From an uncultured Alphaproteobacteria bacterium (lineage in GTDB: Bacteria; Pseudomonadota; Alphaproteobacteria; CAAHEQ01; UBA3637): a stretch of 64,000 nt of DNA. Positions 2,677 through 56,077 of this stretch are shown one piece after another. The position numbers and the translations under genes are program-made. The notes under the pieces are model-generated. The model was not told the DNA's origin and did not search any database. It worked only from the letters and a program-made list of their open reading frames with translations. Position 1 is the stretch's first letter. Every line of letters starts with the position of its first letter. Where the stretch lies: contig CAKPYH010000001.1 in assembly GCA_934202735.1 (NCBI GenBank), positions 75,614 through 139,613 of the forward strand. Direction: 5' to 3'.

Positions 2677-3596
2677 TCAGAATCCTTTGACTTACTATAC
2701 GACAAAGGATGAGATTTTTCAACTATCTTTTTTAATCTTTCGGGTAAAATATGCGTATAGACTTCGGTTGTGGCAATATCGGCATGCCCCAACATCTGCT
2801 GAACCGACCGTAAATCGGCATCGTGCGCGACCAGATGACTGGCAAAAGAATGACGCAAAACATGGGGCGAGACCCGTTCGGGATTCAACCCCGCCTGCAA
2901 GGCCACATGCTTCAAATGCTTGAAGAACCCATCACGCGTCAAGTGCCCTGTTCGCCCGGCGGACGGAAAGAGCCATTTATTGATACGACCGATTTTCAAG
3001 CGACTTTCCCGCAACACCAACCAATCTTCCAACGCCGCTACCGCCGGTGCATTCAAAGGCACTTGTCGTTCTTTTTGCCCTTTACCGACCACGGTCAACA
3101 TTCGGTTATCCGGCGGCAAATCCGCATGAGCCGTCACCGCTTCCACGGGCAGGCCGACCAACTCGCTGACCCGCAACCCGGACGCATACAAAACTTCCAA
3201 CATCGTGTACATACGGCGATCCGTTTGCGCCGCCACCCGCAACAAGGTGGCCACTTCTTCTTCACTTAAATATTTTGGCAAAGATTTACCCACCTTGGGC
3301 GACATCAGGTAATCGGTCGGGTTTTGTGTAATGATATTTTCCGAAAACAAATAACGATAGTACTCACGCAACGCCGATAACCGTCGGGCTTGCGTTTTGA
3401 CGGCCAGGCCGTTTTGGGCCAGTTGGTGCAGATAAGTTTGCAAGTCTTTGGCCGTTGCCCGGTTCAGACACGAATGATGCGCTTGTAAAAACGCCGTTAC
3501 GTCCGTCAGATCCCGCCGATAAGAATCCACCGTCCGGGGTGAAGCACCGCGTTCAGCCACCATCATTTCCAGAAACGAATCAATATATTTGTCCAA
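2673..3596 (-). CDS. tyrosine site-specific recombinase, XerC/XerD family (307 aa)
   Basis: MDKYIDSFLEMMVAERGASPRTVDSYRRDLTD... and the C-terminal HVLRHSFASHLVAHDADLRSVQQMLGHADIATTEVYTHI catalytic region (R..H..R..Y). Its stop TGA (2673-2675) overlaps the ATG (2674-2676) of the downstream lptG-like gene as ATGA. Confidence 0.8.
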   Translation of the reverse strand: MDKYIDSFLEMMVAERGASPRTVDSYRRDLTDVTAFLQAHHSCLNRATAKDLQTYLHQLAQNGLAVKTQARRLSALREYYRYLFSENIITQNPTDYLMSPKVGKSLPKYLSEEEVATLLRVAAQTDRRMYTMLEVLYASGLRVSELVGLPVEAVTAHADLPPDNRMLTVVGKGQKERQVPLNAPAVAALEDWLVLRESRLKIGRINKWLFPSAGRTGHLTRDGFFKHLKHVALQAGLNPERVSPHVLRHSFASHLVAHDADLRSVQQMLGHADIATTEVYTHILPERLKKIVEKSHPLSYSKSKDSE

Positions 3597-7217: not shown

Positions 7218-7325
7218 GTCATCTTCCGGGCTTGACCCGGGCACTCACTCTTACCTGTCATCTTCGGACGCTATTTTTCTTTCGTCATCTTCGGGCCCCA
7301 CCGGATATCCAGGGAACATAAAGTC
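7218..7325 (+). repeat. cluster of 3 copies of short repeat GTCATCTTC(C)GGGC[TTGACCCGG/CCCACCGGA...] (left sub-array 1)
   Basis: Copies begin at about 7218, 7256 and 7284. The unit at 7284-7316 is the reverse complement of 9457-9490. Confidence 0.8.
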
Positions 7326-7335
7326 TTCTTTCTTT

Positions 7336-7521
7336 TCACTGTGTTTCACGGGTACACGTCCGCATGTACAGGGTTCCCGTCAAAACATTGTGTTCCATCA
7401 CACACCGGGTAATGGTCAGGCTCTTATCGGGATTGACATGTACGTCCGAAACAACCGGCACCTGCGAACACGCCCCCAGGGACAAGGCAACACCCCATAC
7501 GATTAAAATCCGTTTCATCAT
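7336..7521 (-). CDS. small putative lipoprotein (61 aa)
   Basis: MMKRILIVWGVALSLGACSQ... is a signal peptide with lipobox L-G-A-C. SD-like GGAAGGTG lies upstream of the ATG. Confidence 0.45.
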   Translation of the reverse strand: MMKRILIVWGVALSLGACSQVPVVSDVHVNPDKSLTITRCVMEHNVLTGTLYMRTCTRETQ

Positions 7522-7758
7522 TCACCTTCCGAAAAGCCTTGATGAGAGGCGGCTGGAAGTTAGTAACTATTTTAGGAATAGTGCGATATATTCGGCCAAA
7601 AAGCATTATTCTATCGCCTTCCAGCCAAAGCCGGACAGGCAATTTTGCCTTATTTTCCTAAAAGGGTTACTACACCCCGGGGCAGGAATCACCTGCCTTA
7701 TTTTTACTTTATCCGATTTTCAGAGAAATGTCAAAGGGAAAGTGAATAAACGACAGAT

Positions 7759-7915
7759 GTCATCTTCGAGCGTTTATTTTCTTTTGTCATCTTCGGGCTT
7801 GACCCACACACTTACTCCCCCCCTGTCATCTTCGGTCCCTATTTTTAAGAATTGTCATCTTCGGGCTTGACCCGGAGATCCATAGGGAAGAGAAGTCAAT
7901 ATATTATAAGGATTT
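7759..7915 (+). repeat. cluster of 4 copies of the GTCATCTTCGGGC repeat (left sub-array 2); the terminal about 64-bp copy is the inverted partner of 9597-9664
   Basis: Copies begin at about 7759, 7785, 7823 and 7852. 7852-7915 (TGTCATCTTCGGGCTTGACCCGGAGATCCATAGGGAAGAGAAGTCAATATATTATAAGGATTT) is near-identical to the reverse complement of 9597-9664, with a 27-nt exact core AAATCCTTATAATATATTGACTTCTCT. Confidence 0.85.
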
Positions 7916-8191
7916 CAGTACTCCTGGATTTTCGCTTCCGCGGGACTGCGTAAATAAAAAGTTGCCGGTGGCAAGTTTTTATGCGCAAGGCAATGAGCCT
8001 TATTGAAAACAAGGACAACCCTTTGTCCGCCGTTTGAAATATAGGCGGAATTGAACAAGGTAATAGTGAGAAACCGGGAATGACAGAACAGTCCTTATTT
8101 CCACACCATCCCCCATACCACAAAGGGGCCCCAACCGGAACCCCCTTGCACACTTGAACCGTATCCTAAACATACAATCTACAGTCAATGG

Positions 8192-9328
8192 TTATTTTTT
8201 CCGGACACAGTACCCACCTGTCATTTCACGATTAGGACATTTCGCACATTCCGTTGCATCAGCTGCGACAGCAGCGTCATATTGACAATAAGTACAATAA
8301 CCATCACTACCTCTAAATTGTTTATCACTACATATAAGTGCACACCTCCCATCTAGCATAACACGATTAGAACACTTCGCACATTCAGACTCATCAGCCG
8401 GTGCCGCTATATTAGCCCCACAAGGCCAACAAAAGCCATCGTTGGCCATGAAACGGTTGGAACATTTAGCACATTCTGTCGCATTAGTAATCGTGAAATC
8501 CGACCGTTGATCACAAGGCCAGCAAGCACCATTATTGTCTCTCCAGCCATCATCACATATAGGGACACATTCCCCGTTGTCGTTCATTTCACGATTGGGA
8601 CACTTCGCACATTCCGTTGCATCTGCTGAGATCGCAGTGTTATAATTACAAGGCCAACAAAAGCCAGTGTTGTTCATGAAACGATTAGGACACTTCGCAC
8701 ATTCTGTCGCATCAATAACCGTGATAGCATAGGCTGTACTACAAGCATAACAGCTACCCCACTTCTCTTTCATCGGCTTGTCCCCTGGGCAATCGTTGTC
8801 GCAGGTTTCATCGGCCACACAGGTCCCGTTTTCATCATGCTGACAATAACCGCAGGTCGGGGTATTCCCGCCCTCACCCGCGGCCGGCGCAAAGGTGAAC
8901 ACAATGGTATTGCCGTCTTCGGCACAGGTATAATCCGCTTTCACTCCGTTCTCCCACACCTTGGTGGCCCCCAAAGTTATTGTACGCGCCATCTGCACCC
9001 CGTTATTCAAAACGTGATTGCAAACGGGCCGAGTAATATCCGATACCGTCAAGGTAAATCCGGGATCCGCCGCAGCCAACGCCACCGGAAAATCACCGAT
9101 TTTATTGGCAAACTCCGCGTCCAGTGTCGTGGCCGATACACCCGTCCCTAACAACGTATATGTTGACAAAGCAACCGCCCGTTTATTCACCCCGTCTATA
9201 ATATCATTGGCTTTCAACCGATTCATGGCGTATGTATAGCCCGCTATGCCACCGATGGATAAAATCCCCATAATGGCCAAGACCCCCAGCATTTCCACCA
9301 TACTGCGGCCGGTTTCATTGTTTCTCAT
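8192..9328 (-). CDS. type IV pilin/pseudopilin-like protein with cysteine-rich tandem C-terminal modules (about 378 aa from ATG 9328)
   Basis: The ORF-track ORF is 8192..9514. The internal start MRNNETG|RSMVEMLGVLAIMGILSIGGIAGYTYAM is preferred, as it gives a class-III (prepilin) leader with Gly at -1 and Glu at +5 followed by a roughly 20-aa hydrophobic helix. SD-like AAGGGAAAG lies upstream. The C-terminal half contains 5-6 modules ATECAKCPNR(F/E)M..G.C.PC (C-x2-C...C-x2-C), mirrored by DNA repeats of about 120-140 bp period at about 8225, 8362, 8450, 8590 and 8680. Confidence 0.7.
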   Translation of the reverse strand: MRNNETGRSMVEMLGVLAIMGILSIGGIAGYTYAMNRLKANDIIDGVNKRAVALSTYTLLGTGVSATTLDAEFANKIGDFPVALAAADPGFTLTVSDITRPVCNHVLNNGVQMARTITLGATKVWENGVKADYTCAEDGNTIVFTFAPAAGEGGNTPTCGYCQHDENGTCVADETCDNDCPGDKPMKEKWGSCYACSTAYAITVIDATECAKCPNRFMNNTGFCWPCNYNTAISADATECAKCPNREMNDNGECVPICDDGWRDNNGACWPCDQRSDFTITNATECAKCSNRFMANDGFCWPCGANIAAPADESECAKCSNRVMLDGRCALICSDKQFRGSDGYCTYCQYDAAVAADATECAKCPNREMTGGYCVRKK

Positions 9329-9369
9329 TTTGCTTTCCCTTTCTTGATTGAGTTTTCTCTTTGGCTCGG

Positions 9370-9398
9370 AGTGTATCACTATCTCTGTTTTTCTGCAA
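9370..9398 (-). promoter_or_regulatory. candidate sigma70-type promoter for the pilin-like gene (-35 TTGCAG, 17-nt spacer, -10 TACACT on minus strand)
   Basis: Read by eye in the 120-bp gap between the gene start and the right repeat array. Weak match. Confidence 0.2.
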
Positions 9399-9450
9399 CA
9401 GTTATTTTGAACAATTTTGAATTTTTTTGATACGGTGGTTTGTTTTAATT

Positions 9451-9664
9451 GACTTCTTTCCTGGATCTCCGGTGGGGCCCGAAGATGACAGGAAAGCGTG
9501 AGTACCCGGGTCAAGCCCGAAGATGACAGGAAAGTGTGAGTGTCCGGGGCCCCTTACCTTGTCATTCCCATGAAAATGGGAATCCATTGGGCACTAAAAT
9601 CCTTATAATATATTGACTTCTCTTTACCCTGGATCTCCGGTGGGGCCCGAAGATGACAAAAGAA
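9451..9664 (-). repeat. right array of the GTCATCTTCGGGC repeat family in inverted orientation (reads ...GCCCGAAGATGAC...), 4-5 copies
   Basis: Contains CCGAAGATGACAGG three times (9478, 9518, 9647) plus TTGACTTCT(T/C)TT(T/A)CC..TGGATCTCCGGTGGGGCCCGAAGATGACA units at 9451 and 9614. It is the inverted partner of 7218-7325 and 7759-7915. Confidence 0.85.
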
Positions 9665-9750
9665 AATAAACGCCCGAAGAGCCAAAGGGAAGAAATCCTT
9701 GTCCCCCTGTGTATCGTGCCACAGACTTTCTAACAGGTACCCCGGCCTGA

Positions 9751-30696: not shown

Positions 30697-31656
30697 ATGC
30701 AATATCTGGATTTTGAACACACCTTAATGGAAGTGGATACCAACATTGAAGCGTTAAAAATCACTCAATCCCAGCGGGGTTTAGACATCGCGGCCGAAAT
30801 GGAACGCTTGACGACCAAACGGGAACGCGTCCTGCGTCAAACCTACAAAAATTTGACCCCTTGGCAAAAGTCTTGCGTGGCCCGGCACGAAGCCCGCCCA
30901 CATACCCGGGACTATCTGCGTACGATTTTTACGGATTTTTTCCCGTTGCGCGGGGACCGATTGTTTGCGGAAGACGCGGCCATTACCGGCGGATTAGCGA
31001 AACTGAACGGTCAAACCGTCATGGTCATCGGACATGAAAAGGGGCATGATACCGACTCCCGCTTGGCACATAATTTCGGCATGGCCCGACCCGAAGGCTA
31101 TCGCAAAGCCGAACGCCTGATGCACTTGGCCGAACAATTCGGGATTCCTGTGATTACATTGATTGATACGGCGGGGGCCTATCCCGGCGTGGATGCGGAA
31201 GAACGCGGCCAAGCCCGGGCCATAGCCACCACGATTGAAGCCGGCTTAAACCTACGGGTTCCCTTGATTGCCTGTATCATCGGCGAAGGGGGCAGCGGCG
31301 GAGCCATTGCTTTGGCAACGGGCAACAGTATTCTGATGATGGAAAACGCTATTTATTCGGTTATTTCCCCGGAAGGGTGTGCGTCTATTTTATGGAAAGA
31401 TTTCAAGTATGCCCCCCAAGCGGCGGAAATTTTACATTTGACGGCTCAGGATTTATCAGAAAAAGGGCTTATTGACGAAATTATTGCCGAGCCTGTCGGT
31501 GCGGCTCATCATTTTCCGGACCAAGCCATGCAAGCGGTCGGAACGGCCTTGTCGCATCATGTGAAAAAATGGGCCGATATACCGGCCGATGAATTGATCC
31601 GCACACGTCAGGACAAGTTTCTGGCCATGACCCGGGCAGGAGAAATCAAAAAATGA
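30697..31656 (+). CDS. accA: acetyl-CoA carboxylase carboxyltransferase alpha subunit
   Basis: MQYLDFEHTLMEVDTNIEALK...GIPVITLIDTAGAYPGVDAEERGQA...IIGEGGSGGAIALA... Start ATG 30697 is preceded by AAAGGAAAAAA. Confidence 0.92.
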   Translation: MQYLDFEHTLMEVDTNIEALKITQSQRGLDIAAEMERLTTKRERVLRQTYKNLTPWQKSCVARHEARPHTRDYLRTIFTDFFPLRGDRLFAEDAAITGGLAKLNGQTVMVIGHEKGHDTDSRLAHNFGMARPEGYRKAERLMHLAEQFGIPVITLIDTAGAYPGVDAEERGQARAIATTIEAGLNLRVPLIACIIGEGGSGGAIALATGNSILMMENAIYSVISPEGCASILWKDFKYAPQAAEILHLTAQDLSEKGLIDEIIAEPVGAAHHFPDQAMQAVGTALSHHVKKWADIPADELIRTRQDKFLAMTRAGEIKK

Positions 31657-32753
31657 GTCGCTTGTTATCGCGGTATATTTTCAAACAGTTTGCATTGATT
31701 TTTTTCGCCACCTTGTTTGTTTTAACGGCCACGGTCATGTTATTTGATGTGATTGAATTACTCCGCAATGCCTCCAAACGTGAAGGCATTGCTTTTTGGG
31801 ACATCATGGTGTTGGCGGTCTTAAAATCGCCTCAGATGATTCATATTATCTTGCCTTTCGTATCTTTGATTGCGGGCCTGTTGTTTTTATTCAAGTTTGA
31901 TCGATCGTCCGAACTGATTGTGATGCGGGCGGTTGGCTTGTCGGCATGGAACTTTATCGGACCGGTTGTTTTGTTCATTACCGCCATCGGAATCTTTGAC
32001 ATCACGCTGTTTAATCCTGTTGCGGCCATGACGGCCCGCCGATACGAACGGATGGAAGAACGTATCGGCCTGACAAACTCTACGCCGTTTACCTGGTCAT
32101 CCGAAGGCTTGTGGTTGCGTGATGTTCGGGATAATGAAGTCTTGGTGATTCGGGCATCGCGGGTCCGTCAAGAAAATCAGAATGTCTTGCTGGATAATGT
32201 GTCGGTGTTTGAATTAGACGATGATAACGTATTCTTGCGCCAAAATGAAGCGGCAATCGGCACCTTGAAAAACGGTATTTTAGCTCTGCACAACGCCTTT
32301 GTGATGGACCCGAAACGCGAAAGCGGTGCCGTTCATCAACAGGTTTTATTTGAAACGGACCTGAGCCTGGAACGCATTTTGGAAAAGTTTGATGAACCGC
32401 AAACGATGTCTTTTTGGCGATTTCCGCGATTTATTCGGTTTTTGAAAGAATCCGGCTTTTCCTCTGCTTTGCATGAAATGTATTGGCATGAACTCCTGGC
32501 TTTTCCCAGCATCCTGATTGCCATGATTCTGATCAGTGCCGTATTCGCCCTGCCCCCGTGCAACCGTCAAGGTCATGCGTTAGTGCGGGTGTTGGCGGCC
32601 TTATTATGCGGCTTTACATTATATTTTATGACGCGTGCCACGAATGTATTGGGACAATCGCAAAGCCTGCCCATGATATTGGCAGCCTGGGGCCCGGCAT
32701 TGGTGGCCATTCCGTTATGCCTGTCGGCCTTGTTGCACCTGGAAGACGGCTAG
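31653..32753 (+). CDS. LptF/LptG-family LPS export permease (second paralogue in window)
   Basis: 366 aa. MSRLLSRYIFKQFALIFFATLFVLTATVMLFDVIELLRNASKREG... YjgP/YjgQ-type with 6 predicted TM segments and a central periplasmic domain. ATGA overlap with the accA stop. Confidence 0.8.
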   Translation: MSRLLSRYIFKQFALIFFATLFVLTATVMLFDVIELLRNASKREGIAFWDIMVLAVLKSPQMIHIILPFVSLIAGLLFLFKFDRSSELIVMRAVGLSAWNFIGPVVLFITAIGIFDITLFNPVAAMTARRYERMEERIGLTNSTPFTWSSEGLWLRDVRDNEVLVIRASRVRQENQNVLLDNVSVFELDDDNVFLRQNEAAIGTLKNGILALHNAFVMDPKRESGAVHQQVLFETDLSLERILEKFDEPQTMSFWRFPRFIRFLKESGFSSALHEMYWHELLAFPSILIAMILISAVFALPPCNRQGHALVRVLAALLCGFTLYFMTRATNVLGQSQSLPMILAAWGPALVAIPLCLSALLHLEDG

Positions 32754-32879: not shown

Positions 32880-32954
32880 GACCCTATCATCTAACGGTTA
32901 GGATACGGCCCTCTCAAGGCCGGCATACGGGTTCAAATCCCGTTAGGGTCGCCA
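32880..32954 (+). tRNA. tRNA-Glu (anticodon CUC), 75 nt including CCA
   Basis: Cloverleaf folded by hand. Acceptor GACCCTA/TAGGGTC. D-arm ATCT/GGAT with U13-G22. Anticodon stem CGGCC/GGCCG with loop CTCTCAA, so anticodon CTC. 4-nt variable loop (a Glu identity feature). T-arm ACGGG-TTCAAAT-CCCGT. Discriminator G plus CCA. Confidence 0.75.
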
Positions 32955-33004
32955 AGTATAATTGACTGTATTGATACCTTGCATAAAATTTTTAATAAAT
33001 ATAC

Positions 33005-33559
33005 GCAATATCGCGATCATTTTAGAAGGGAGATTCAAAGTGAATAAAGTACTCAATTTGATTTGTAGGACAGCACTTTTGGTATTTATGATGATTTTTA
33101 ATGCAACGATTTTATGGGGTATATATCACACAGAGAGTGTGTTTGCCCTGTGTTTGGGCATTTTATTTTTTGCCTATTTATATTTTCAATTGTTCAGAAA
33201 AGATAACAGACAGAAAAATTCTTTTTGGGGATTGTTTGCAAATATTCTTTTACCGATTTACCTGGTATTATTTGTATCATATATATTTAATTCGTTATCT
33301 GATAAAAATCTATATCATGATCCCGTTCAAGAGGGGCTAACTATGTTTATGGGCATTTTGATCTGTGTTATCGTAATTCCGGCTTTTTCTGCCATACAAA
33401 GTTTTTTGATGTGTGAGTTTGCTCGCTTGTCATCATCTAATGAAAAAGATATGTGAGTATATCATACCTCTTGCAAAAAACAAAGGAAATTATGTAAAAT
33501 AGACGGTTTTCAATATCGTTGAGTTATAGCCCCCAAATTGCCCACATGACTGCACATAA
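33005..33559 (+). repeat. about 555-bp direct repeat, copy 1 (carries small membrane-protein gene); near-identical to 40806-41359
   Basis: Visually identical apart from a few substitutions (for example GTATAT versus GTGTAT, CCCCCAAATTG versus CCCCTAAATTG). Ends with core GCCCACATGACTGC (33540-33553). Confidence 0.9.
33040..33456 (+). CDS. small polytopic membrane protein (138 aa, about 4 TM), copy 1
   Basis: GTG start 33040 preceded by GGGAGA. VNKVLNLICRTALLVFMMIFNATILWGIYHTESVFALCLGILFFAYLYFQLF... Identical copy at 40840-41256. Confidence 0.55.
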   Translation: MNKVLNLICRTALLVFMMIFNATILWGIYHTESVFALCLGILFFAYLYFQLFRKDNRQKNSFWGLFANILLPIYLVLFVSYIFNSLSDKNLYHDPVQEGLTMFMGILICVIVIPAFSAIQSFLMCEFARLSSSNEKDM

Positions 33560-33580
33560 ATATAAAATAAAACATAAATT

Positions 33581-35860
33581 TTATTGAGTTCCTTTATGTT
33601 TCCAAGTACAATGATGTCCCGTACAGGTTATTATTGAAAATTCGTCTTTTTTTACCGCTTCTATGACATCATCAACAGTAAAAGTAAACTTTTTATCAGA
33701 TTCTTCCATACGCTCACAGTGATTCGGGAAATCAATAGACACCGTTCCGTCTTTTTTACCAAATAACTTTGCGCCACAAGCAATTTTTTTACCATTAAAT
33801 TCTTTGGCTTCTGTTGATGAAATATCCTTTCCTTGACCACCATCTGCACTAACGGCTAAAATAGCTAACCGCGAAGCATCCATTACAACTGAATTTGCAT
33901 AATGTTGAATCATTGCTTTATTGGCTCCTACTTCTGCTACTTTCTGGATTCCAGATAATATCGTTTTCGGATCGTTTAAGGTAGCATTATCACCACCATT
34001 AGCCATTGCAGTAAATAGGATTACTTTTTGCATTAAATCCATTGTAAAGCCTTTAAAACATTGTTCCGCTGATTTCCATTGTGATTCCGGTAATTTTGAT
34101 AAACAAGGCCAAGAATCAGATTTAACTTGTTCCATATCAATAGAGTCATCAATTTTTTTCATGACAGATGAAACTTTTGATGGATCTTCCAATGTATTTT
34201 GAACTATTGGCAAAATCATTTCTTTGAGAATCCCATCTTTTAATTCAGAATAATAGCTTTCTGCAGACGCAGGCAAATCATATTTTTGAATTGGCGTAGA
34301 TACCTTTAATAAATCTTGAACTTCCTGATTTAAATTAAAGATGGCGTATTGAGATGCTGTTTTACCTTTATTATCTTTGAGAGTTTTATCTGCACCATAC
34401 TGCAACAATAATTTTATCATTTTTGTATCTTCGGCGGATGATGCCGCTTTCATCAATGCTGTTACACCTGCTTTATCGACAGCATTCACATCTATTCCTT
34501 TTTTTAATAAATGCTCTAAAACGGTTGGTTGATTACATTGAATCGCAATAGATAATAAATTTTGGCCATACGCATTTTGAGTATTTATATCTGCACCATT
34601 TTTTAATAGTAAATCTATTATATCCAAGCGTTTTTGTATATAAGAGTTATAATCGGGTATTATAGTAAAAATACCGTCTTTTTTGAATTCATTAAAAGTT
34701 TTTTCATCTACTACTTCGGCACTTTTTATTAAAGCCGAATCACCATATTCGTCTTTATAATTAACATCTGCACCTTCTTGAATAAGTTTTTGTATCCCTT
34801 CTAATGTTGTACTTTCATAATCAATCTCTGATAATAATTTCATACTGTTTTTTGATTTTTGAGCTTCTGTATCGGATAAAGCAGTTCCCCCTAGAGCCAC
34901 TATATATTGGTTATAATTTGGATCCTTAATTAAATATTCATTTGTCTGTAATAATTGAAGAGGGGTTTTACCTTTCTCATTTTTGACATTAACATTAACT
35001 TTTTGTTCCAAAAGAAACTTTAAAGCATCGGGTTTTGCTGCTCCGGCGGCAACTATAATGGGATAGTCTTCCTTAACAGGGTGTTTGTAAAAAATACGTT
35101 CTGCTTGAACATTAGGGTCCGCGCCCAATCGCAAAAGATATTTAGCCATTTCCATAGATTTATGATTTTTTATAGCTTGCAAAAAGAGATAATTCAAATT
35201 TTCTTTTCCTATATCTAACCCAGCCTTTTGAAAAATAGATATGACTTCCGGATAAGAGCTATTTCTGACAATATCTTCATAAAAAGAAGCAGAATATTTA
35301 TCTTGTTGATGAATATTGGCGCCATTTGTTATAAGCAATTCTATAATCTCTGGTTTTGCGTCTAATATAATTGCAGATTTTAATGCAGAATCATTTCCAA
35401 ATATAGATGGGATTTCTGTTCTTACATCAGCACCAGATTGGATTAAAAACTCTACTACTCTTGGATCTTTATTACGCAAAGCAGATATTAAAGGGGTTTC
35501 TTTCATATTTTCAGCACCGATAAGTTCATTAACATCGGCTCCAGATTTAACTAAATATTGCACCATCTCTAATGTTCCATCAGCACATACCTGTTGAAAC
35601 ACAGAGGTATATTCTGTTTTAGCGTTTATATCCGCCCCGGCTTTAATTAATTCTGAAAAAATTGCAGTATCTTTTACCAGCATCAACGGGTAAATGCCTG
35701 ATTGTTCATCTGCTTGATTGACATTTGCACCATTCCTAATAAGAGCTTGAATTTCGGATAACGGTTTATTTTCTGCTAAAGCTTTTGTTAGTTCTGTAGC
35801 ATTTGCAGTATTGTAAAATAAACAAGACACTAAAACAGTACTTAATAATAAATTTTTCAT
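33581..35860 (-). CDS. ankyrin-repeat protein with N-terminal signal peptide (759 aa)
   Basis: Start ATG 35860 gives MKNLLLSTVLVSCLFYNTANA|TELTKALAENK.... Multiple ANK-type repeats (...NGANVNQADEQSGIYPLMLVKDTAIFSELIKAGADINAKTE..., ...GADVN..., ...LLKNGADINTQNAYGQNLLSIAIQCNQPTVLEHLLKKGIDVNAVDKAGVTALMKAA...). AT-rich codon usage. Confidence 0.8.
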   Translation of the reverse strand: MKNLLLSTVLVSCLFYNTANATELTKALAENKPLSEIQALIRNGANVNQADEQSGIYPLMLVKDTAIFSELIKAGADINAKTEYTSVFQQVCADGTLEMVQYLVKSGADVNELIGAENMKETPLISALRNKDPRVVEFLIQSGADVRTEIPSIFGNDSALKSAIILDAKPEIIELLITNGANIHQQDKYSASFYEDIVRNSSYPEVISIFQKAGLDIGKENLNYLFLQAIKNHKSMEMAKYLLRLGADPNVQAERIFYKHPVKEDYPIIVAAGAAKPDALKFLLEQKVNVNVKNEKGKTPLQLLQTNEYLIKDPNYNQYIVALGGTALSDTEAQKSKNSMKLLSEIDYESTTLEGIQKLIQEGADVNYKDEYGDSALIKSAEVVDEKTFNEFKKDGIFTIIPDYNSYIQKRLDIIDLLLKNGADINTQNAYGQNLLSIAIQCNQPTVLEHLLKKGIDVNAVDKAGVTALMKAASSAEDTKMIKLLLQYGADKTLKDNKGKTASQYAIFNLNQEVQDLLKVSTPIQKYDLPASAESYYSELKDGILKEMILPIVQNTLEDPSKVSSVMKKIDDSIDMEQVKSDSWPCLSKLPESQWKSAEQCFKGFTMDLMQKVILFTAMANGGDNATLNDPKTILSGIQKVAEVGANKAMIQHYANSVVMDASRLAILAVSADGGQGKDISSTEAKEFNGKKIACGAKLFGKKDGTVSIDFPNHCERMEESDKKFTFTVDDVIEAVKKDEFSIITCTGHHCTWKHKGTQ

Positions 35861-36148
35861 AATAATCCATCCCTTAAAAACATATATTGGCATGTTAGTA
35901 GAATTACATATTAAAGTCAACAAAATAATTTTGCTAATAATTCACATATAGCCCACATGACTGCCCCATCACCTGCCCCCTTTTACAGGCATTGTTTTTG
36001 ATTGACAAGAACTGATTTGTGTACATAAATCCCGGGATAAAAATGCTATTTTTTACAATTTGACAAGCTTTTGAATAAACAATCCTTGTTTTCTTGTTGC
36101 TTTTTGAAAAATATGTATGTATAAAGATCTTGTGAAAGGTGAAATGAG

Positions 36149-36601
36149 ATGAAAAAGAAGTTAAAATTTATTGGATTGGTGTTCTTGGGATGCATGCTAT
36201 CCACAAATGTGTTATCATGGACAACCACAATTAATTCGGTAAAAAATTATGAAAAATTTGTTTATGATGAAGATACAGAAATGTATACAGGGGATATTGA
36301 ACGGGTCTATATGGAGAAAAAAGCCCCCGATGGAAAGATTTATGTTTTATATGATTTGACAGTAGAACAAAAAGAAAATGATGATGGAACCCTGGAATCG
36401 TCTGATTATTCTCTTAAAACAGGAAACGATATTTATCCTCGCCAAATGGATGATTATTTTTTACTGGATTATCATTTCAGGCCTTTAACCCATTTAGGGG
36501 TTAAACTGGGCACACATAAAGGTCAAATTATTTTTGAGATTCCGGTCAATCAAAAAGATTTGCCCAAGACTTTACTTTATAAAAAGCAACCTGTAAAATA
36601 A
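36149..36601 (+). CDS. hypothetical secreted/lipoprotein-like protein (150 aa)
   Basis: MKKKLKFIGLVFLGCMLSTNVLSW... is a signal peptide with an imperfect lipobox. First gene of a 4-gene co-directional cluster. Confidence 0.45.
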   Translation: MKKKLKFIGLVFLGCMLSTNVLSWTTTINSVKNYEKFVYDEDTEMYTGDIERVYMEKKAPDGKIYVLYDLTVEQKENDDGTLESSDYSLKTGNDIYPRQMDDYFLLDYHFRPLTHLGVKLGTHKGQIIFEIPVNQKDLPKTLLYKKQPVK

Positions 36602-36617
36602 CTGATAGAAAAATAAA

Positions 36618-38237
36618 ATGAAATATGGTATTTTTTGCATAAGTTTATTTTTATCAACGCTGGCTCATGCTGATTATATACTTGATCAGGCAAAGATGGA
36701 TGCCGATATCCAAAAAGAATTATCGCAAAAGCAATATACTGTGGAGGATCCTTTGGTGTTGGTCAATCCTTATGGTATTTCTCCATTGAGTGCTCTTATT
36801 TCCTTTTCTACAAAAGAATCAACGCAGGCTTGTATCACAGTAAAAGGAAAAGATAAATATACCACTTTTTCAAAATGTTTTAATGATAGAACAAAAAATC
36901 ACTTGATCCCCGTCTATGGTCTTTATTTTGGGAAAAACGATATCGTATTAACGATAAAAGATAAAGATAAAAATCAAAGTAAAGAATATCCGTTGGAAAT
37001 TGAAACGGAAAAAATGCCTATCAACATGAAAGTGAATATTCAAAAAATAAACGCGGAAAAAATAAAACCGGGACTGACTTTTACAACACCCGGGGTTATC
37101 GTAAATGAGGGAAGCTACGCTTATGCATTTGATGCAAACGGTGATATTCGTTGGATTTTAACCGATCCGATCATGGGAAAAATGTCTCCGTTGCACGTGT
37201 TAAAAGATGGTACTTTAATGATGGGTTCTGAAGAACATGACCCAAAATATACTGTGGCGTATAAATCTCTTTATGAATTGGATTTGATGGGGAAAATTCA
37301 TCATAAAATCCAAGCCGAAGATGACATTCAACATGATATTGTCAAACTGCCTAATGGTAATTATTTGGCTTTGGTTAATGCAACGGGGAAACCCACGATT
37401 GCCGATTGTGTGGTAGAATTAACCCCCGATAATAAAGTCGTTGATCGCTTTGATATAGATAAAATTTTAGGGGTTGAAGATGAAAGAATTACGCCGCTTG
37501 TTGACCACTATCTTTATCATGATAACTATAAACGTGAAAAAATGGATGCCATGCATTTGAATTCTTTAAACTATGATCCTGAAGATGATAGCATTATTAT
37601 GACAGGAAGATTTTTTAACTTTTTATTGAAGATTGATCGTAAAACAAAACAAGTTAAATGGATTTTGGCAAATCCGATAAATACTTGGATAAAGCCACAC
37701 TTGCGGGATAAATTATTAAAACCGACAGATAAAAATTTTGATTATATCTATGGGGCTCACGCGGCAAAACCGCAAGGTCATAATCATTATACTGTTTTAG
37801 ACAACGGTCTTTATCGTGATATATATGACCAAGGTTCCGCACAACCCATTGAGACCTATAATCCTTCACGCAGTTGGTCGCGTGGCGTAGAGTTTGTTGT
37901 TGATGAAAAAAATATGACCGTTTCAGTCGCATGGCAATATAAACGCGGGCCAGAAATTTATACTCACTATGTTGGGGATGTAGATAAATATGAAGCAGGC
38001 CATTATTTAATGAATTTCGGTGCTGTCTTTGATGATAAAGATGAAACACCGGCCAGCGTTGAAACGGCATTAAATCCACAGAAACAACCGGCTCCTTCTT
38101 ATGCTAAAATCATTGAAGTCAAGGATGGAGAAGTTGTTTTTGAAGCACAAACAGCCGGCCTGTTAAATAATACGGTTTATCGTGTAGAACGTTTTGAACC
38201 ATACGTATTAGATACTGAATACAAATTGGGCAAATAA
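36618..38237 (+). CDS. putative periplasmic beta-propeller protein, arylsulfate sulfotransferase (ASST)-like, paralogue 1 (539 aa)
   Basis: Signal peptide MKYGIFCISLFLSTLAHA|DY. Motifs ...DIQHDIVKLPNGNYLAL..., ...AMHLNSLNYDPEDDSIIMTGRFFNFLLKIDRKTKQVKWILANP... and ...GAHAAKPQGHNHYTVLDNG... resemble the His-containing signature blocks of bacterial ASST (PF05935) as I recall them. Not verified by search. Confidence 0.4.
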   Translation: MKYGIFCISLFLSTLAHADYILDQAKMDADIQKELSQKQYTVEDPLVLVNPYGISPLSALISFSTKESTQACITVKGKDKYTTFSKCFNDRTKNHLIPVYGLYFGKNDIVLTIKDKDKNQSKEYPLEIETEKMPINMKVNIQKINAEKIKPGLTFTTPGVIVNEGSYAYAFDANGDIRWILTDPIMGKMSPLHVLKDGTLMMGSEEHDPKYTVAYKSLYELDLMGKIHHKIQAEDDIQHDIVKLPNGNYLALVNATGKPTIADCVVELTPDNKVVDRFDIDKILGVEDERITPLVDHYLYHDNYKREKMDAMHLNSLNYDPEDDSIIMTGRFFNFLLKIDRKTKQVKWILANPINTWIKPHLRDKLLKPTDKNFDYIYGAHAAKPQGHNHYTVLDNGLYRDIYDQGSAQPIETYNPSRSWSRGVEFVVDEKNMTVSVAWQYKRGPEIYTHYVGDVDKYEAGHYLMNFGAVFDDKDETPASVETALNPQKQPAPSYAKIIEVKDGEVVFEAQTAGLLNNTVYRVERFEPYVLDTEYKLGK

Positions 38238-38240
38238 AGG

Positions 38241-39404
38241 ATGAACAAAAAATGTATTATTTTGGTTTTATTATCTTTGTGCGGCATATCCGAGTACGCC
38301 ATTGCCGGGCCCACTTCAGATTTTTATGAATCATGGAAAGAAAAATTACATCATGATTATGGTTTTGATTATCGTATTCGCGCCGGATTTATGGCTCAAC
38401 GTGGTTCCCCAAGTGGCCATAAAACAGTCTTGCGCGATAAATATGAAATTGAAGCGAATTGGGAGGCTTTTGCTTCGGATAGTTTTGGACAAGGTTCTAT
38501 TCAATTTTTATACGAAGATATCAATTATCCCGGGATTGAAGGTTCTCTGATGGCTTCCAGATTAGGTGTTGCAACCCCCATAAATGATGATGCGTTGCAA
38601 CGGGAGTATTTCAAACGTTTGACATATACACATCAACTTCCCGGTTCATTAGATAATATCAGTTTATCGGTTGGACAATTCCTTATCGGAAATTTTGGAA
38701 AGACACGTTATAAATCAAAACCTCTTAATCATTTTAATAATTTTTCTTTGCAAAAAAACATGTCTAAAGCGTATCCGACAGGGGGCGTTGGGGGATATAT
38801 GACTTATAAGCCAACGCCTGATTTAACACTCATTACCGGACTTCAAAGTACAACGAATTATTTTCCGCAAAACATCAGTGTAAAACATCTTGATGCGAAT
38901 AAATGGACGAACTTTTTTTATATCTCATATTCACCCAAATTAACCGATTTAGGAAAAACAATCTTGACAGGATGGATTTATCACAGTCCAGCGATAAAAA
39001 AATATGAGGGACAATTTAATAAAGCATTTCAAAAATCTGCCGATGGATGGGTCATAACTATCAGGCAAGATATTGGTAAATGGACGGGGCTTATTAAAGT
39101 CAATGGGTCAACAGGTAATCGTATGGCCATTCGGCAAAGTTATTCGGCAGAATTAATGTATAACAATCCTTTAAATAGAAATGAATTAGATCAAATAGGA
39201 ATTGGTTTTGCCTCTAATAGGGTCAGTCATTTAAATAAAAAAGCAGTCCGATCTTGGGAAAATGTATTGGAAGGATATTGGTCCTGGGGGATTTCCAAGT
39301 ATTTGACGATTACACCAGACATTCAATTATACATCAATCCGGCCTTAACAAAGGATAGAAATACTGTTGTCGTAAATAGTATTCAAGCAAAATTTTATTT
39401 CTAA
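38241..39404 (+). CDS. putative outer-membrane beta-barrel protein/porin (387 aa)
   Basis: Signal peptide MNKKCIILVLLSLCGISEYAIA|GP. Alternating amphipathic segments. C-terminal ...NSIQAKFYF ends in Phe (OMP beta-barrel signature). Confidence 0.5.
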   Translation: MNKKCIILVLLSLCGISEYAIAGPTSDFYESWKEKLHHDYGFDYRIRAGFMAQRGSPSGHKTVLRDKYEIEANWEAFASDSFGQGSIQFLYEDINYPGIEGSLMASRLGVATPINDDALQREYFKRLTYTHQLPGSLDNISLSVGQFLIGNFGKTRYKSKPLNHFNNFSLQKNMSKAYPTGGVGGYMTYKPTPDLTLITGLQSTTNYFPQNISVKHLDANKWTNFFYISYSPKLTDLGKTILTGWIYHSPAIKKYEGQFNKAFQKSADGWVITIRQDIGKWTGLIKVNGSTGNRMAIRQSYSAELMYNNPLNRNELDQIGIGFASNRVSHLNKKAVRSWENVLEGYWSWGISKYLTITPDIQLYINPALTKDRNTVVVNSIQAKFYF

Positions 39405-39413
39405 AATATAAAA

Positions 39414-51863: not shown

Positions 51864-51954
51864 AATTACTTTGTAATTACACATACAAAAATGTAATTAC
51901 TTTGTGTACACATTTCATTCTTGTAATTACATTGTAATTACGTAATTACAATGT
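51864..51954. repeat. cluster 1 of AT-rich (T)GTAATTAC(A) palindromic motifs, including a perfect 26-bp palindrome ACATTGTAATTACGTAATTACAATGT (51929-51954)
   Basis: GTAATTAC occurs 6 times in about 90 bp, between the holA stop (51957) and the start of the 508-aa gene (51780). Confidence 0.85.
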
Positions 51955-53560: not shown

Positions 53561-54409
53561 GTGATGAAAAAATGTGTGATTATTGTCGGCCCGACGGCCA
53601 GTGGCAAATCGGATTTAGCCGTGCAAGTGGCCCAAGCCGGACAAGGATGTGTCGTCAATGCGGATTCTATGCAGATTTATCGCGACTTACGCCTGATTTC
53701 CGCCCGACCGACACCGGCACAAACCGCCTTGGTTCCCCACTTTTTATACGGATATGCCGATGCTTATACTCCCAATTCGGTACAAGATTGGTTAAACCGT
53801 GTCGTTCCCGTTTTACAGGCCGCGCCGAACCCCGTTATTGTCGGGGGGACGGGATTGTACATCACGGCCCTGATAAACGGCCTGAATACCATGCCCGACA
53901 TACCGCCCGAGATTCGCACCCGGGCCCGCCAAACCGATTTACAAGATATTCACAAATGCTTACCCGAGTTTCCCTATACAGATCCGCAACGCCTGCGCCG
54001 AGCCTATGAAGTTTGGTTAGCGACCGGAAAACCGATTTCTTACTTTCAAAATCAACCAAAACACAGTCCTTTTCCGGCCGATTATCGGGTGATTTTTATT
54101 CAACCGCCCCGCGATCAGTTATACGCTCGTTGCGATCGTCGCTTCCATCAGATGATAGAGCAGGGGGGCATAGAAGAAGTCCGCCACCTGATGTCCCTGC
54201 ACCCGACAGGAGGCGTTTTAAAAGCTATCGGTGTACCGGAAATCATGGCCTATTTGAACGGGGAACTGACCCGCGATCAGATGATCACCCAAGCCCTGTT
54301 GTCCACCCGGCATTATGCCAAGCGGCAGCTGACCTGGTTTCGGCATCAAATACGGGCCGATCATATACTGACCGACCCGTCCGAATTTTGTGCGGACATG
54401 ATCACTTAA
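53561..54409 (+). CDS. miaA: tRNA dimethylallyltransferase
   Basis: MMKKCVIIVGPTASGKSDLAVQVAQAGQGCVVNADSMQIYRDLRLISARPT...GGTGLYI... Confidence 0.9.
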   Translation: MMKKCVIIVGPTASGKSDLAVQVAQAGQGCVVNADSMQIYRDLRLISARPTPAQTALVPHFLYGYADAYTPNSVQDWLNRVVPVLQAAPNPVIVGGTGLYITALINGLNTMPDIPPEIRTRARQTDLQDIHKCLPEFPYTDPQRLRRAYEVWLATGKPISYFQNQPKHSPFPADYRVIFIQPPRDQLYARCDRRFHQMIEQGGIEEVRHLMSLHPTGGVLKAIGVPEIMAYLNGELTRDQMITQALLSTRHYAKRQLTWFRHQIRADHILTDPSEFCADMIT

Positions 54410-55326
54410 ACAACGGATCCGACTGTCGTCAACCGTTGCAAAATCACATCTAATTTATCCAACCCGGTATAAGAAATCACAACCGTTCCCCCTTGTCCGT
54501 TCCAGTTGATACTCACCGGTGTTTTCAAGACCGCACTCATTTCTTTTTCCAAAGCCAAAATATCTTCGTTTTTGCCGATATGCGTATCGGGTAGGGGGAT
54601 TTTTTTAGGCCGCTGAGCTTTGGGTTTATAATGCCCGACCATTTGTTCCACTTGTCGCACACTCAACCCTTTGGCCACAATTTCCGCCGCCAAAGCCGAT
54701 GCATTTTGGGCCGTCAACAAAGCCCGGGCATGTCCTATCGTTAACTCTTTGTTTTCAAGCAACTTTTTAATATCATCGGGTAAATCAAGCAACCGCATCA
54801 TATTGGCCACATGACTACGGCTTTTTCCCACAACTTGGGATAACTCATCTTGGGTATAATGAAACTCAACCAATAACCGTTTATAGGCTTCTCCTTCTTC
54901 CAACGGATTCAAATCTTCCCGCTGCAAGTTTTCCACTAACGCCACTTCCAGTGCGGCTTTATCATCAAAATCTTTAATGATAACAGGGATTTGCTTTAAT
55001 CCTGCCTGTTTAGAAGCCCGAAACCGGCGTTCCCCGGCAATAATTTCATATTGATCCGGGTGTCCCGGCCGGACCCGTACTAACAACGGTTGTAAAACCC
55101 CTTTTTCCTGAATGGAATGTACCAAATCCGCCAAAGCCGATTCGGCAAATACCCGTCGCGGCTGATACGGACTGGGGACCAAAGAATCTATGGATACCGC
55201 CGAAATGCCGTTGGTTGTCGGTTCACGTGAAACATCCACCGGCCCCGATAGAAAATCATCCCCCATCAAAGCGCTTAATCCTTTACCCAGACCTAAATTT
55301 TTATCCATTTTGTATCTCCTTTTCAC
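54406..55326 (-). CDS. parB: chromosome partitioning protein ParB
   Basis: ...GLGKGLSALMG..., ...YEIIAGERRFRASKQAGLKQIPVIIKD..., HTH ...ELSQVVGKSRSHVANMMRLLDLP... The ATG at 55308 (MDKNLGLGKG) may be the true start. Confidence 0.9.
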   Translation of the reverse strand: MKRRYKMDKNLGLGKGLSALMGDDFLSGPVDVSREPTTNGISAVSIDSLVPSPYQPRRVFAESALADLVHSIQEKGVLQPLLVRVRPGHPDQYEIIAGERRFRASKQAGLKQIPVIIKDFDDKAALEVALVENLQREDLNPLEEGEAYKRLLVEFHYTQDELSQVVGKSRSHVANMMRLLDLPDDIKKLLENKELTIGHARALLTAQNASALAAEIVAKGLSVRQVEQMVGHYKPKAQRPKKIPLPDTHIGKNEDILALEKEMSAVLKTPVSINWNGQGGTVVISYTGLDKLDVILQRLTTVGSVV

Positions 55327-56077
55327 GTTTTAAGACTTCACCAGCCAAGTGAATATAACTTTGGGCCCCAACACTTTTAAAATCATACAACATCACCGGT
55401 TTACCGTGAGAAGGGGCTTCAGGGATTCGGACGTTCCGCGGTATCACCGTATCATAAACCAAGTCCCCAAAAAACGAACGCACATCATTCACAACCGATC
55501 GTGATAAACGCGACCGACCGTCATACATCGTCATAACAATCCCGTCAATTTTCAATGTCGGATTAAAGTTTTTCTTAACTTTATCAATTGTTTTCATTAA
55601 ATCGGCCACACCTTCCAGGGCCAAGTATTCGCACTGAACCGGAATAATCACCGAATCGGATGCCACCAACGCATTCATGGTGAGCAGCCCCACCGCCGGC
55701 GGGCAATCTACAAAGATATAATCAAAATCTGATAAATCAGCGACCGCTTTTTTCAAGAAAAACTGCGGGCGATCTACATCGGCCAATTCCATATCCACCC
55801 CCAATAATTCCTGACTGGCTGGCAACATATACAGATAAGGAATCGCGGTTTGAACCACACTGGCCGAACCGGCATATCGCCCGGTTAAAACCGTATATGA
55901 ATTTGCACCGCCTTGCCGCCGTTGAACACCTAAACTCACCGTTGCATTTCCTTGGGGATCTAAATCTATAATCAAAACTTTTTTACGTAAAGCCGCTAAA
56001 GCCGTTGCTAAATTGACCGTAGTTGTGGTCTTACCGACCCCCCCTTTTTGATTAGAGACCGAAAAGATTTTAGTCAT
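55301..56077 (-). CDS. parA: chromosome partitioning ATPase ParA/Soj
   Basis: MTKIFSVSNQKGGVGKTTTTVNLATALAA... (deviant Walker A KGGVGKT). Confidence 0.9.
   Translation of the reverse strand: MTKIFSVSNQKGGVGKTTTTVNLATALAALRKKVLIIDLDPQGNATVSLGVQRRQGGANSYTVLTGRYAGSASVVQTAIPYLYMLPASQELLGVDMELADVDRPQFFLKKAVADLSDFDYIFVDCPPAVGLLTMNALVASDSVIIPVQCEYLALEGVADLMKTIDKVKKNFNPTLKIDGIVMTMYDGRSRLSRSVVNDVRSFFGDLVYDTVIPRNVRIPEAPSHGKPVMLYDFKSVGAQSYIHLAGEVLKREKEIQNG

Follow-up and report, generated by a model that had tools for sequence, protein, structure and literature searches.

Repeat-bounded modules in a tRNA-linked islet of an uncultured gut alphaproteobacterium, with an ankyrin-gene segment between copies of a 14-bp core

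Among described systems, the closest comparisons to the locus reported here are with islands that have grown beside tRNA genes. In cis-mobilizable elements (CIMEs), the attachment (att) sites are kept and the genes for integration and transfer are lost (PMC5704250), and in the tycheposon islands of Prochlorococcus the flanking repeats are partial tRNA sequences, with integrase-bearing elements present in some genomes (bioRxiv 10.1101/2020.12.28.424599). Our locus lies in a 64,000-nt stretch of DNA (hereafter the window) from an uncultured Alphaproteobacteria bacterium (assembly GCA_934202735.1, contig CAKPYH010000001.1, positions 75,614 to 139,613). Between its tRNA-Glu(CTC) gene and ptsN, positions 32955-41387 form an 8.4-kb islet with a guanine-plus-cytosine (GC) content of 31-38%, or 28-39% over 33000-41400, against ~49% elsewhere in the window. 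The islet is foreign DNA made up of modules that a strain may carry or lack, every one of them flanked by short direct repeats. One of the modules, a segment with an ankyrin-repeat gene, stands between two copies of a 14-bp core; it probably entered this recombinase-less islet once, by a single crossover at the core, and was later reshuffled among repeats.

The islet shows the tRNA adjacency, deviant GC, presence/absence variation and flanking direct repeats of tRNA-linked genomic islands, and its low-GC DNA begins at 32955, the first base past the CCA end of tRNA-Glu. An integrase at one end, which also belongs to that description, is found within 10 kb in none of the strains. As in CIMEs and accretion islands (PMC5704250), the locus has a tRNA site, att-like direct repeats are kept around modules, genes for integration and transfer are gone, and modules follow one another in tandem at the att copy that adjoins the host flank. 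Unlike in those islands, the repeats overlap the tRNA by its CCA end only, the modules are very small (1-5 genes), and the ankyrin module has its own 14-bp core beside the att-like site, which we call S. On these features the locus appears to be a degenerate tRNA-linked island built by accretion, CIME-like in kind; no cognate element or integrase is known for it. The tycheposon islands share with it the position next to a tRNA gene, recurrent integration at one site that pushes older material inward, a majority of material without an integrase and a strain-variable cargo. They differ in that no integrase-bearing form was seen at this locus and its core has no similarity to the tRNA.

The 14-bp core and its three junctions

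The core (GCCCACATGACTGC) occurs in three exact copies in the window, all on the + strand, at 33540 (A), 35951 (B) and 41340 (C), just as a preliminary description of this DNA had listed them, and there is no fourth. Chance would supply ~5e-4 further exact copies per 64 kb, and a search with up to two mismatches added a single site (54805) against 0.34 expected in shuffles, and within the window the core is not the frequent chance motif that the same description had considered. The leading T that it gave the motif is present at A and C, which read ATTGCCC; B reads ATAGCCC. Left of the core, the identities are 39/40 between A and C, 15/40 between B and C, and 16/40 between A and B; on its right the same pairs agree at 13/40, 33/40 and 9/40, so that A and B have the core alone in common. 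This pattern of matches places one breakpoint pair, shared by all three copies, at the core edges. The arrangement first described is thereby borne out, with the repeat R, core and tail at C, R and core followed by divergence at A, and a different left flank followed by core and the same tail at B, all meeting at these common breakpoints. Core and tail together form a 51-bp repeat of 92% identity (35948-35998 versus 41337-41387), and the core spacings, 2,411 (A-B) and 5,389 (B-C), add up to 7,800, which is also the offset in bp between the two R copies (33008-33553 and 40808-41353; 546 bp, ~99% identical).

That R, core and tail belong to a single repeat element had also been proposed. The three-part order is seen at C, but R turns out to be an operon gene and the tail to be separate from it. 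The open reading frame (ORF) of R copy 2 begins at 40840, overlapping the 3′ end of the last operon gene, with its ribosome-binding site inside that gene, and R copy 1 still retains the last 40 nt of the operon gene. We therefore read R as the terminal, translationally coupled gene of the operon, partly duplicated, and not as an autonomous repeat. The tail is ~33 bp long (29-33), starts at the tRNA CCA end, has ~52% GC by our own count and forms a direct repeat around the operon and R. In all operon-first strains the tRNA runs directly into it, as ...GGGTCGCCA / CCACCTGCCCCCTTTTACAGGCATTGTTTT / TGATTGACAAG (operon), and it precedes the right host flank in every case. Because it adjoins the tRNA CCA, precedes the host flank and flanks the operon-R module, we take the tail to be the att-like site S.

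Modules and junctions among strains

Strains were gathered by looking up exact matches to the LptG, PtsN, Hpf, R and DUF4352 proteins, which gave ~25 independent assemblies from human-gut metagenomes, Hadza cohorts included, and one metagenome-assembled genome (MAG) from NCBI (GCA_934179985.1); L-numbers label the related loci or contigs that were compared with the window. The left host flank (accA and lptG) and the right one (ptsN and hpf) are near-identical across the ~25 assemblies, which are of the same species. Relatives of LptG at 55-79% identity all belong to gut or rumen Alphaproteobacteria MAGs, and at the orthologous loci to which they lead synteny is lost and tRNA-Glu is absent, hence no ancestral empty site can be read there.

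The interval from tRNA-Glu to ptsN takes 11 architectures, in which left, middle and right segments assort near-freely. Writing R'+252 for the form in which a 252-aa gene takes the place of the R 3′ untranslated stretch, these are R (L007); R'+252 (L074); R, ankyrin (L004); R'+252, ankyrin (L003); operon, R (L005); operon, R'+252 (L008); operon, R, ankyrin (L011, L012); operon, R'+252, ankyrin (L018); operon, R'+252, serpin (L006); R, ankyrin, operon, R (the window and partial contigs L081 and L082); and R*, ankyrin, operon, R, serpin (L001). Unoccupied ankyrin sites (L008, L020, L074 and core C of the window) have one core and then the tail, as ...AGCCC(C/G)CAAATT GCCCACATGACTGC CCCACCACCTGCCCCCTTTTACAGGCATTGTTTT CGTTC (host), where the tail after CAAATT and core reads CCCACCACCTGCCCCC or, in short form, CAAATT-GCCCACATGACTGC-CCCACCACC. 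Occupied sites (the window, L003, L004, L011, L012, L014, L017 and L018) have two cores and read ...CAAATT GCCCACATGACTGC / ACATAAATAT...ankyrin...TTCACATATA / GC(C/A)CACATGACTGC CCCACCACCTG..., identically behind R and behind the unrelated R'+252-aa module. A comparison of strains with and without the insert thus found both alleles with constant junctions, and the unit of about 2.4 kb with a duplicated core that had been proposed from the window alone proves to be a segment of 2,397 bp. A second empty allele, GCCCACA AAACTCTCAA CACCTG..., is present in L005, L007 and L009. An artefact of assembling or binning repeats is barely credible as the source of these patterns: short-read assemblies do break at R, as window-type contigs in two further samples do, but independent assemblies from ENA, Logan and NCBI show identical junctions, on contigs of 50-205 kb that span the locus.

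A direct repeat around a discrete segment would also fit a non-autonomous transposon with a 14-bp target-site duplication, a reading that we consider very improbable. The ankyrin gene is the sole ORF of the segment, which holds no transposase; its ends (ACATAAATAT..., ...TTCACATATA) lack terminal inverted repeats, and no inverted repeats that pair them were found. Where an insertion sequence would be expected in multiple copies with target duplications of their own, the segment occupies a single site in all strains compared, and homologues in other species share the ORF only. Fourteen base pairs is, moreover, long for a target duplication.

The operon with its following R (segment B-C) is itself a present/absent module, bounded by S or by core plus S (33-51 bp), and in the window by core plus S (51 bp, 92%). 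Exactly one such module, bounded by core plus S, separates the window from an L004-type strain, and L004 is also its nearest relative by single-nucleotide polymorphisms (SNPs) in the flanks (21 per 4,000 and 33 per 4,000). Two further modules are absent from the window. The serpin module (L001 10551-11705; 384 aa, signal peptide judged by eye) lies between GCCCACATGAC and CCCTTTACAGGCATTG, and begins on the left with a diverged version of the 3′ half of S and the first host bases (p ~0.01-0.02); it is likewise bounded by repeats, S and a diverged S-like copy, with a crossover point different from that of the ankyrin module. The 252-aa module (L003 11842-12600) encodes a predicted membrane protein with no Pfam match.

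Ankyrin modules differ between strains by 13-35 SNPs per 2,390 bp (0.5-1.5%) and host flanks by 21-62 SNPs per 4,000 bp, and architecture is not aligned with flank relatedness. Module diversity that equals flank diversity, decoupled from architecture, points to an old polymorphism that has been repeatedly reshuffled. Within single genomes (the window copies; L002), the two R copies share private SNPs that are missing from other strains, which points to gene conversion within the genome.

The ankyrin protein has a Sec-type signal peptide (recognised by eye), ankyrin repeats and a C-terminal region of ~220 aa that gave no PDB match by sequence. With a promoter-like site at 35920-35892 (promoter scan) inside the module, the cargo appears to be a self-contained expression unit for a predicted secreted ankyrin-repeat protein. 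Table 1 gives the coordinates of the features.

Table 1. Features of the islet and of the adjoining host genes, in window coordinates
Feature	Position	Strand	Description
lptG	31653..32753	+	Conserved left host gene; Pfam LptF_LptG, E = 1.7e-54; ~49% GC; same protein at the locus in all strains
tRNA-Glu(CTC)	32880..32954	+	ARAGORN; Rfam tRNA, 59 bits
Spacer, 53 nt	32955..33007	+	R-first strains only; promoter-like TTGACT-16-TAAAAT at 32962-32989 (promoter scan)
R copy 1	33008..33553	+	Last 40 nt of arylsulfotransferase-2 gene, 138-aa membrane-protein ORF, 3′ untranslated stretch, site L, core A
R ORF, copy 1	33040-33456	+	138 aa
Site L	33528-33539	+	AGCCCCCAAATT; inside R copy 1
Core A	33540..33553	+	GCCCACATGACTGC; left copy at ankyrin segment
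Ankyrin module	33554..35950	-	2,397 bp; present/absent among strains, junctions fixed
Ankyrin ORF	33581-35860	-	759 aa; Pfam Ank families, E down to 1e-43
Core B	35951..35964	+	Right copy at ankyrin segment; GCACACATGACTGC in some strains
S copy 1	35965..35998	+	CCCATCACCTGCCCCCTTTTACAGGCATTGTTTT; att-like site left of operon module
Operon module	35999..40807	+	Four genes (Pfam and ORFs); present/absent among strains
DUF4352 gene	36149-36601	+	Pfam; first of operon
Arylsulfotransferase gene	36618-38237	+	Pfam
OprB porin gene	38241-39404	+	Pfam
Arylsulfotransferase-like gene	39414-40847	+	Pfam; overlaps R start at 40840
R copy 2	40808..41353	+	ORF 40840-41256; terminates in core C
Core C	41340..41353	+	End of R copy 2; unoccupied ankyrin site
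S copy 2	41354..41387	+	ACCACCACCTGCTCCCTTTTACAGGCATTGTTTT; abuts conserved host flank CGTTCTTTTATC
ptsN (EIIA-Ntr type)	41558..42013	-	Conserved right host gene; Pfam PTS_EIIA_2; same protein at the locus in all strains

Origin of the ankyrin module

In the reading that we favour, the ankyrin segment would have been taken in a single time, as a circle, through one crossover at the core, which lies immediately left of S where R or the 252-aa module ends; such a crossover would leave the core duplicated on both sides of the insert. We favour a single crossover because direct repeats flank the insert, and replacement by double crossover would have left its anchor sequence unduplicated. The likeliest catalyst would be a site-specific recombinase acting in trans, from an element no longer linked to the locus. 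Since then the module would have persisted as a segregating polymorphism of the species over roughly the period of strain divergence. Its later loss, background switching and stacking would have proceeded by ordinary recombination, within and between strains, through R (546 bp), core plus S (~50 bp), S (33 bp) and the host flanks, and the window arrangement would represent a strain with R and ankyrin (L004 type) that gained one operon-R module at S. The junction data give neither direction (insertion or excision) nor enzyme, and what can be read of the mechanism is ordinary island plasticity.

Several findings weigh against this reading. Within 10 kb of the locus, none of the strains has an integrase, transposase or excisionase. 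The fully empty site (tRNA-S-host) has no match in JGI metagenomes and does not occur among the strain architectures. The 53-nt spacer after the tRNA in R-first strains, for which this reading does not account, has no significant similarity to the rest of the window. Between the window and the homologue at 85% identity, homology covers the ORF and 18 nt, so that the non-coding ends of the cassette are not conserved. A single junction type at the core-flanked filled sites documents one event and no recurrence at the core. Finally, in L001, L002 and L013 a diverged R 3′ stretch (~70% identical) is joined to the ankyrin gene with the left core absent, from which it follows that the R-ankyrin adjacency may predate the core-flanked form.

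That coreless joint is the ground for a different and, in our view, unlikely history with no insertion at the core at all. R and the ankyrin gene would have been neighbours in a donor island of L001 type, the left core would have arisen by gene conversion of the R1 3′ end from R-core-S, and the ankyrin-less strains would be deletions. The R and ankyrin ORFs of the L001 type are indeed still ~98-99% identical to the usual forms, and R copies that share a genome have demonstrably been homogenised. However, the conversion tract would have to stop exactly at the last core base in many strains; L004 and L003 carry one R copy and so offer no conversion donor in the same genome; and the identical left junction also stands behind the unrelated 252-aa module. 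The ankyrin modules of L001, L002 and L013 are 19-29 SNPs from core-flanked ones, inside the 13-35 range, and the coreless patch therefore looks local.

It is likewise doubtful that a dedicated cassette system is active here, in which a distant recombinase would repeatedly insert and excise single-gene cassettes (ankyrin, serpin, 252-aa) at the site L-core-S by tRNA-Glu, in an integron-like manner with other sites. Three different single-gene modules do occur in the same 60-bp region, each with flanking repeats, and a 66% homologue of the ankyrin gene sits in a gene array with ~100-nt repeats. All four combinations of R or R'+252 with and without ankyrin exist although the variable positions are ~26 bp apart, which requires very-short-tract crossovers or recurrent events at the core, whether repeated core-by-core loss or repeated insertion. 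Against such a system, a single junction type is seen per module; crossover lies at the core for ankyrin but within S for serpin; the locus has no linked recombinase; the core turned up in no other context; and module diversity equals that of the core genome, with no sign of recent movement. The sole recombinase in the window is a XerD-like tyrosine recombinase 30 kb off (2673-3596, - strand; NCBIfam NF001399, 341 bits), which is a housekeeping enzyme. With integron cassettes the ankyrin module shares its single gene, its fixed site and the existence of alternatives among strains. It differs in its plain 14-bp direct duplication, its own promoter-like site and an orientation opposed to that of its neighbours. 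Neither the window nor the flanks of related loci contain IntI or attI, and an attC-like fold was rejected, since folding was about as weak in all six junction strands as in their shuffles (z -0.28 to +1.0). By these comparisons the islet belongs neither with integron cassettes nor with transposons, and we return to a single entry at the core as the favoured origin of the ankyrin module.

Other candidate relationships of the core and its surroundings were tried. Descent from a decayed tRNA 3′ end was rejected for the core and for site L (p = 0.2-0.99), as was descent of the spacer from the left end of the operon (p = 0.43), and a decayed copy of S at the left end of the ankyrin module was not significant (p = 0.14). 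The tRNA was the sole RNA family recognised in an Rfam-type search of the junctions. Neither core nor S was found in other contexts among the homologue loci, JGI metagenomes and a viral collection. In the JGI metagenomes the 19-mer AAATTGCCCACATGACTGC gave 11 matches, each an unrelated occurrence by chance within the coding sequence of another organism. In the viral collection S had 0 matches, R and the ankyrin C-terminal domain had no relatives, and the tRNA 3′ end matched phage tRNA arrays only. Among GTDB species representatives no relatives of R were found. By eye, the stretch of site L, core and S (33536-33553, 41336-41375 and the L008 site) may be read as three degenerate 12-nt units (TGCCCACATGAC, TGCCCCACCACC and TGCCCCCTTTTAC), and the cassette ends, if joined, would give CACAT three times at a spacing of 10-11 nt.

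Homologues in other hosts and wider setting

Elsewhere in the window, parB, parA and rsmG (54406-56708) suggest a position near the replication origin. At 7227-9680, three inverted-repeat pairs (41-54 nt, 89-93% complementary) enclose ~2.2 kb with a 440-aa cysteine-rich repeat ORF (8192-9514, - strand; internal direct repeats of 83-140 nt), which has no Pfam or NCBIfam match; judging from this layout, the segment may be invertible or phase-variable. Two intergenic stretches 8.6 kb apart (51887-51943 and 60517-60633) carry runs of repeats with a period of ~30 nt around GTAATTAC-like palindromes.

Full-length homologues of the ankyrin protein, whose exact sequence in the window has no database record, fall into only 6 clusters, at 99, 85, 66, 60, 55 and 52% identity, and below those are generic ankyrin proteins. 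The 85% homologue (L052 5065-8047; also L053 and L054) lies ~260 nt downstream of tRNA-Arg(ACG) in low-GC DNA of a host with 52-56% GC, on contigs that all stop at most ~360 nt past the gene. The 66% homologue (L050 9589-15140) comes from a different lineage of low-GC gut MAGs and belongs there to an islet close to tRNA-Leu(CAA), where 3-4 consecutive genes are each followed by a ~100-nt hairpin-containing repeat with the palindrome GGGACGTTGACGTCC. Given these homologues near other tRNA genes, the ankyrin gene travels between gut alphaproteobacteria and tends toward tRNA-adjacent islets, and the non-coding ends in the window are not a conserved mobile unit.

A broader possibility, which we regard as rather improbable, is a previously undescribed trans-acting recombination system that docks at the site L-core-S and shuttles secreted eukaryote-like genes (ankyrin, serpin) between gut alphaproteobacteria; if so, the repeat-separated array around the 66% homologue in L050 would be a second form of it. 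The locus itself offers a clear natural example of genes for secreted eukaryote-like proteins being gained and lost in different combinations. Its ankyrin and serpin genes accompany an arylsulfotransferase/porin operon, the uncultured alphaproteobacterium that carries them comes from the human gut in Hadza and other cohorts, and the repeats that bound the modules are exact targets for polymerase chain reaction and read mapping, suited to asking if the modules are still mobile and if their carriage goes with host or diet.

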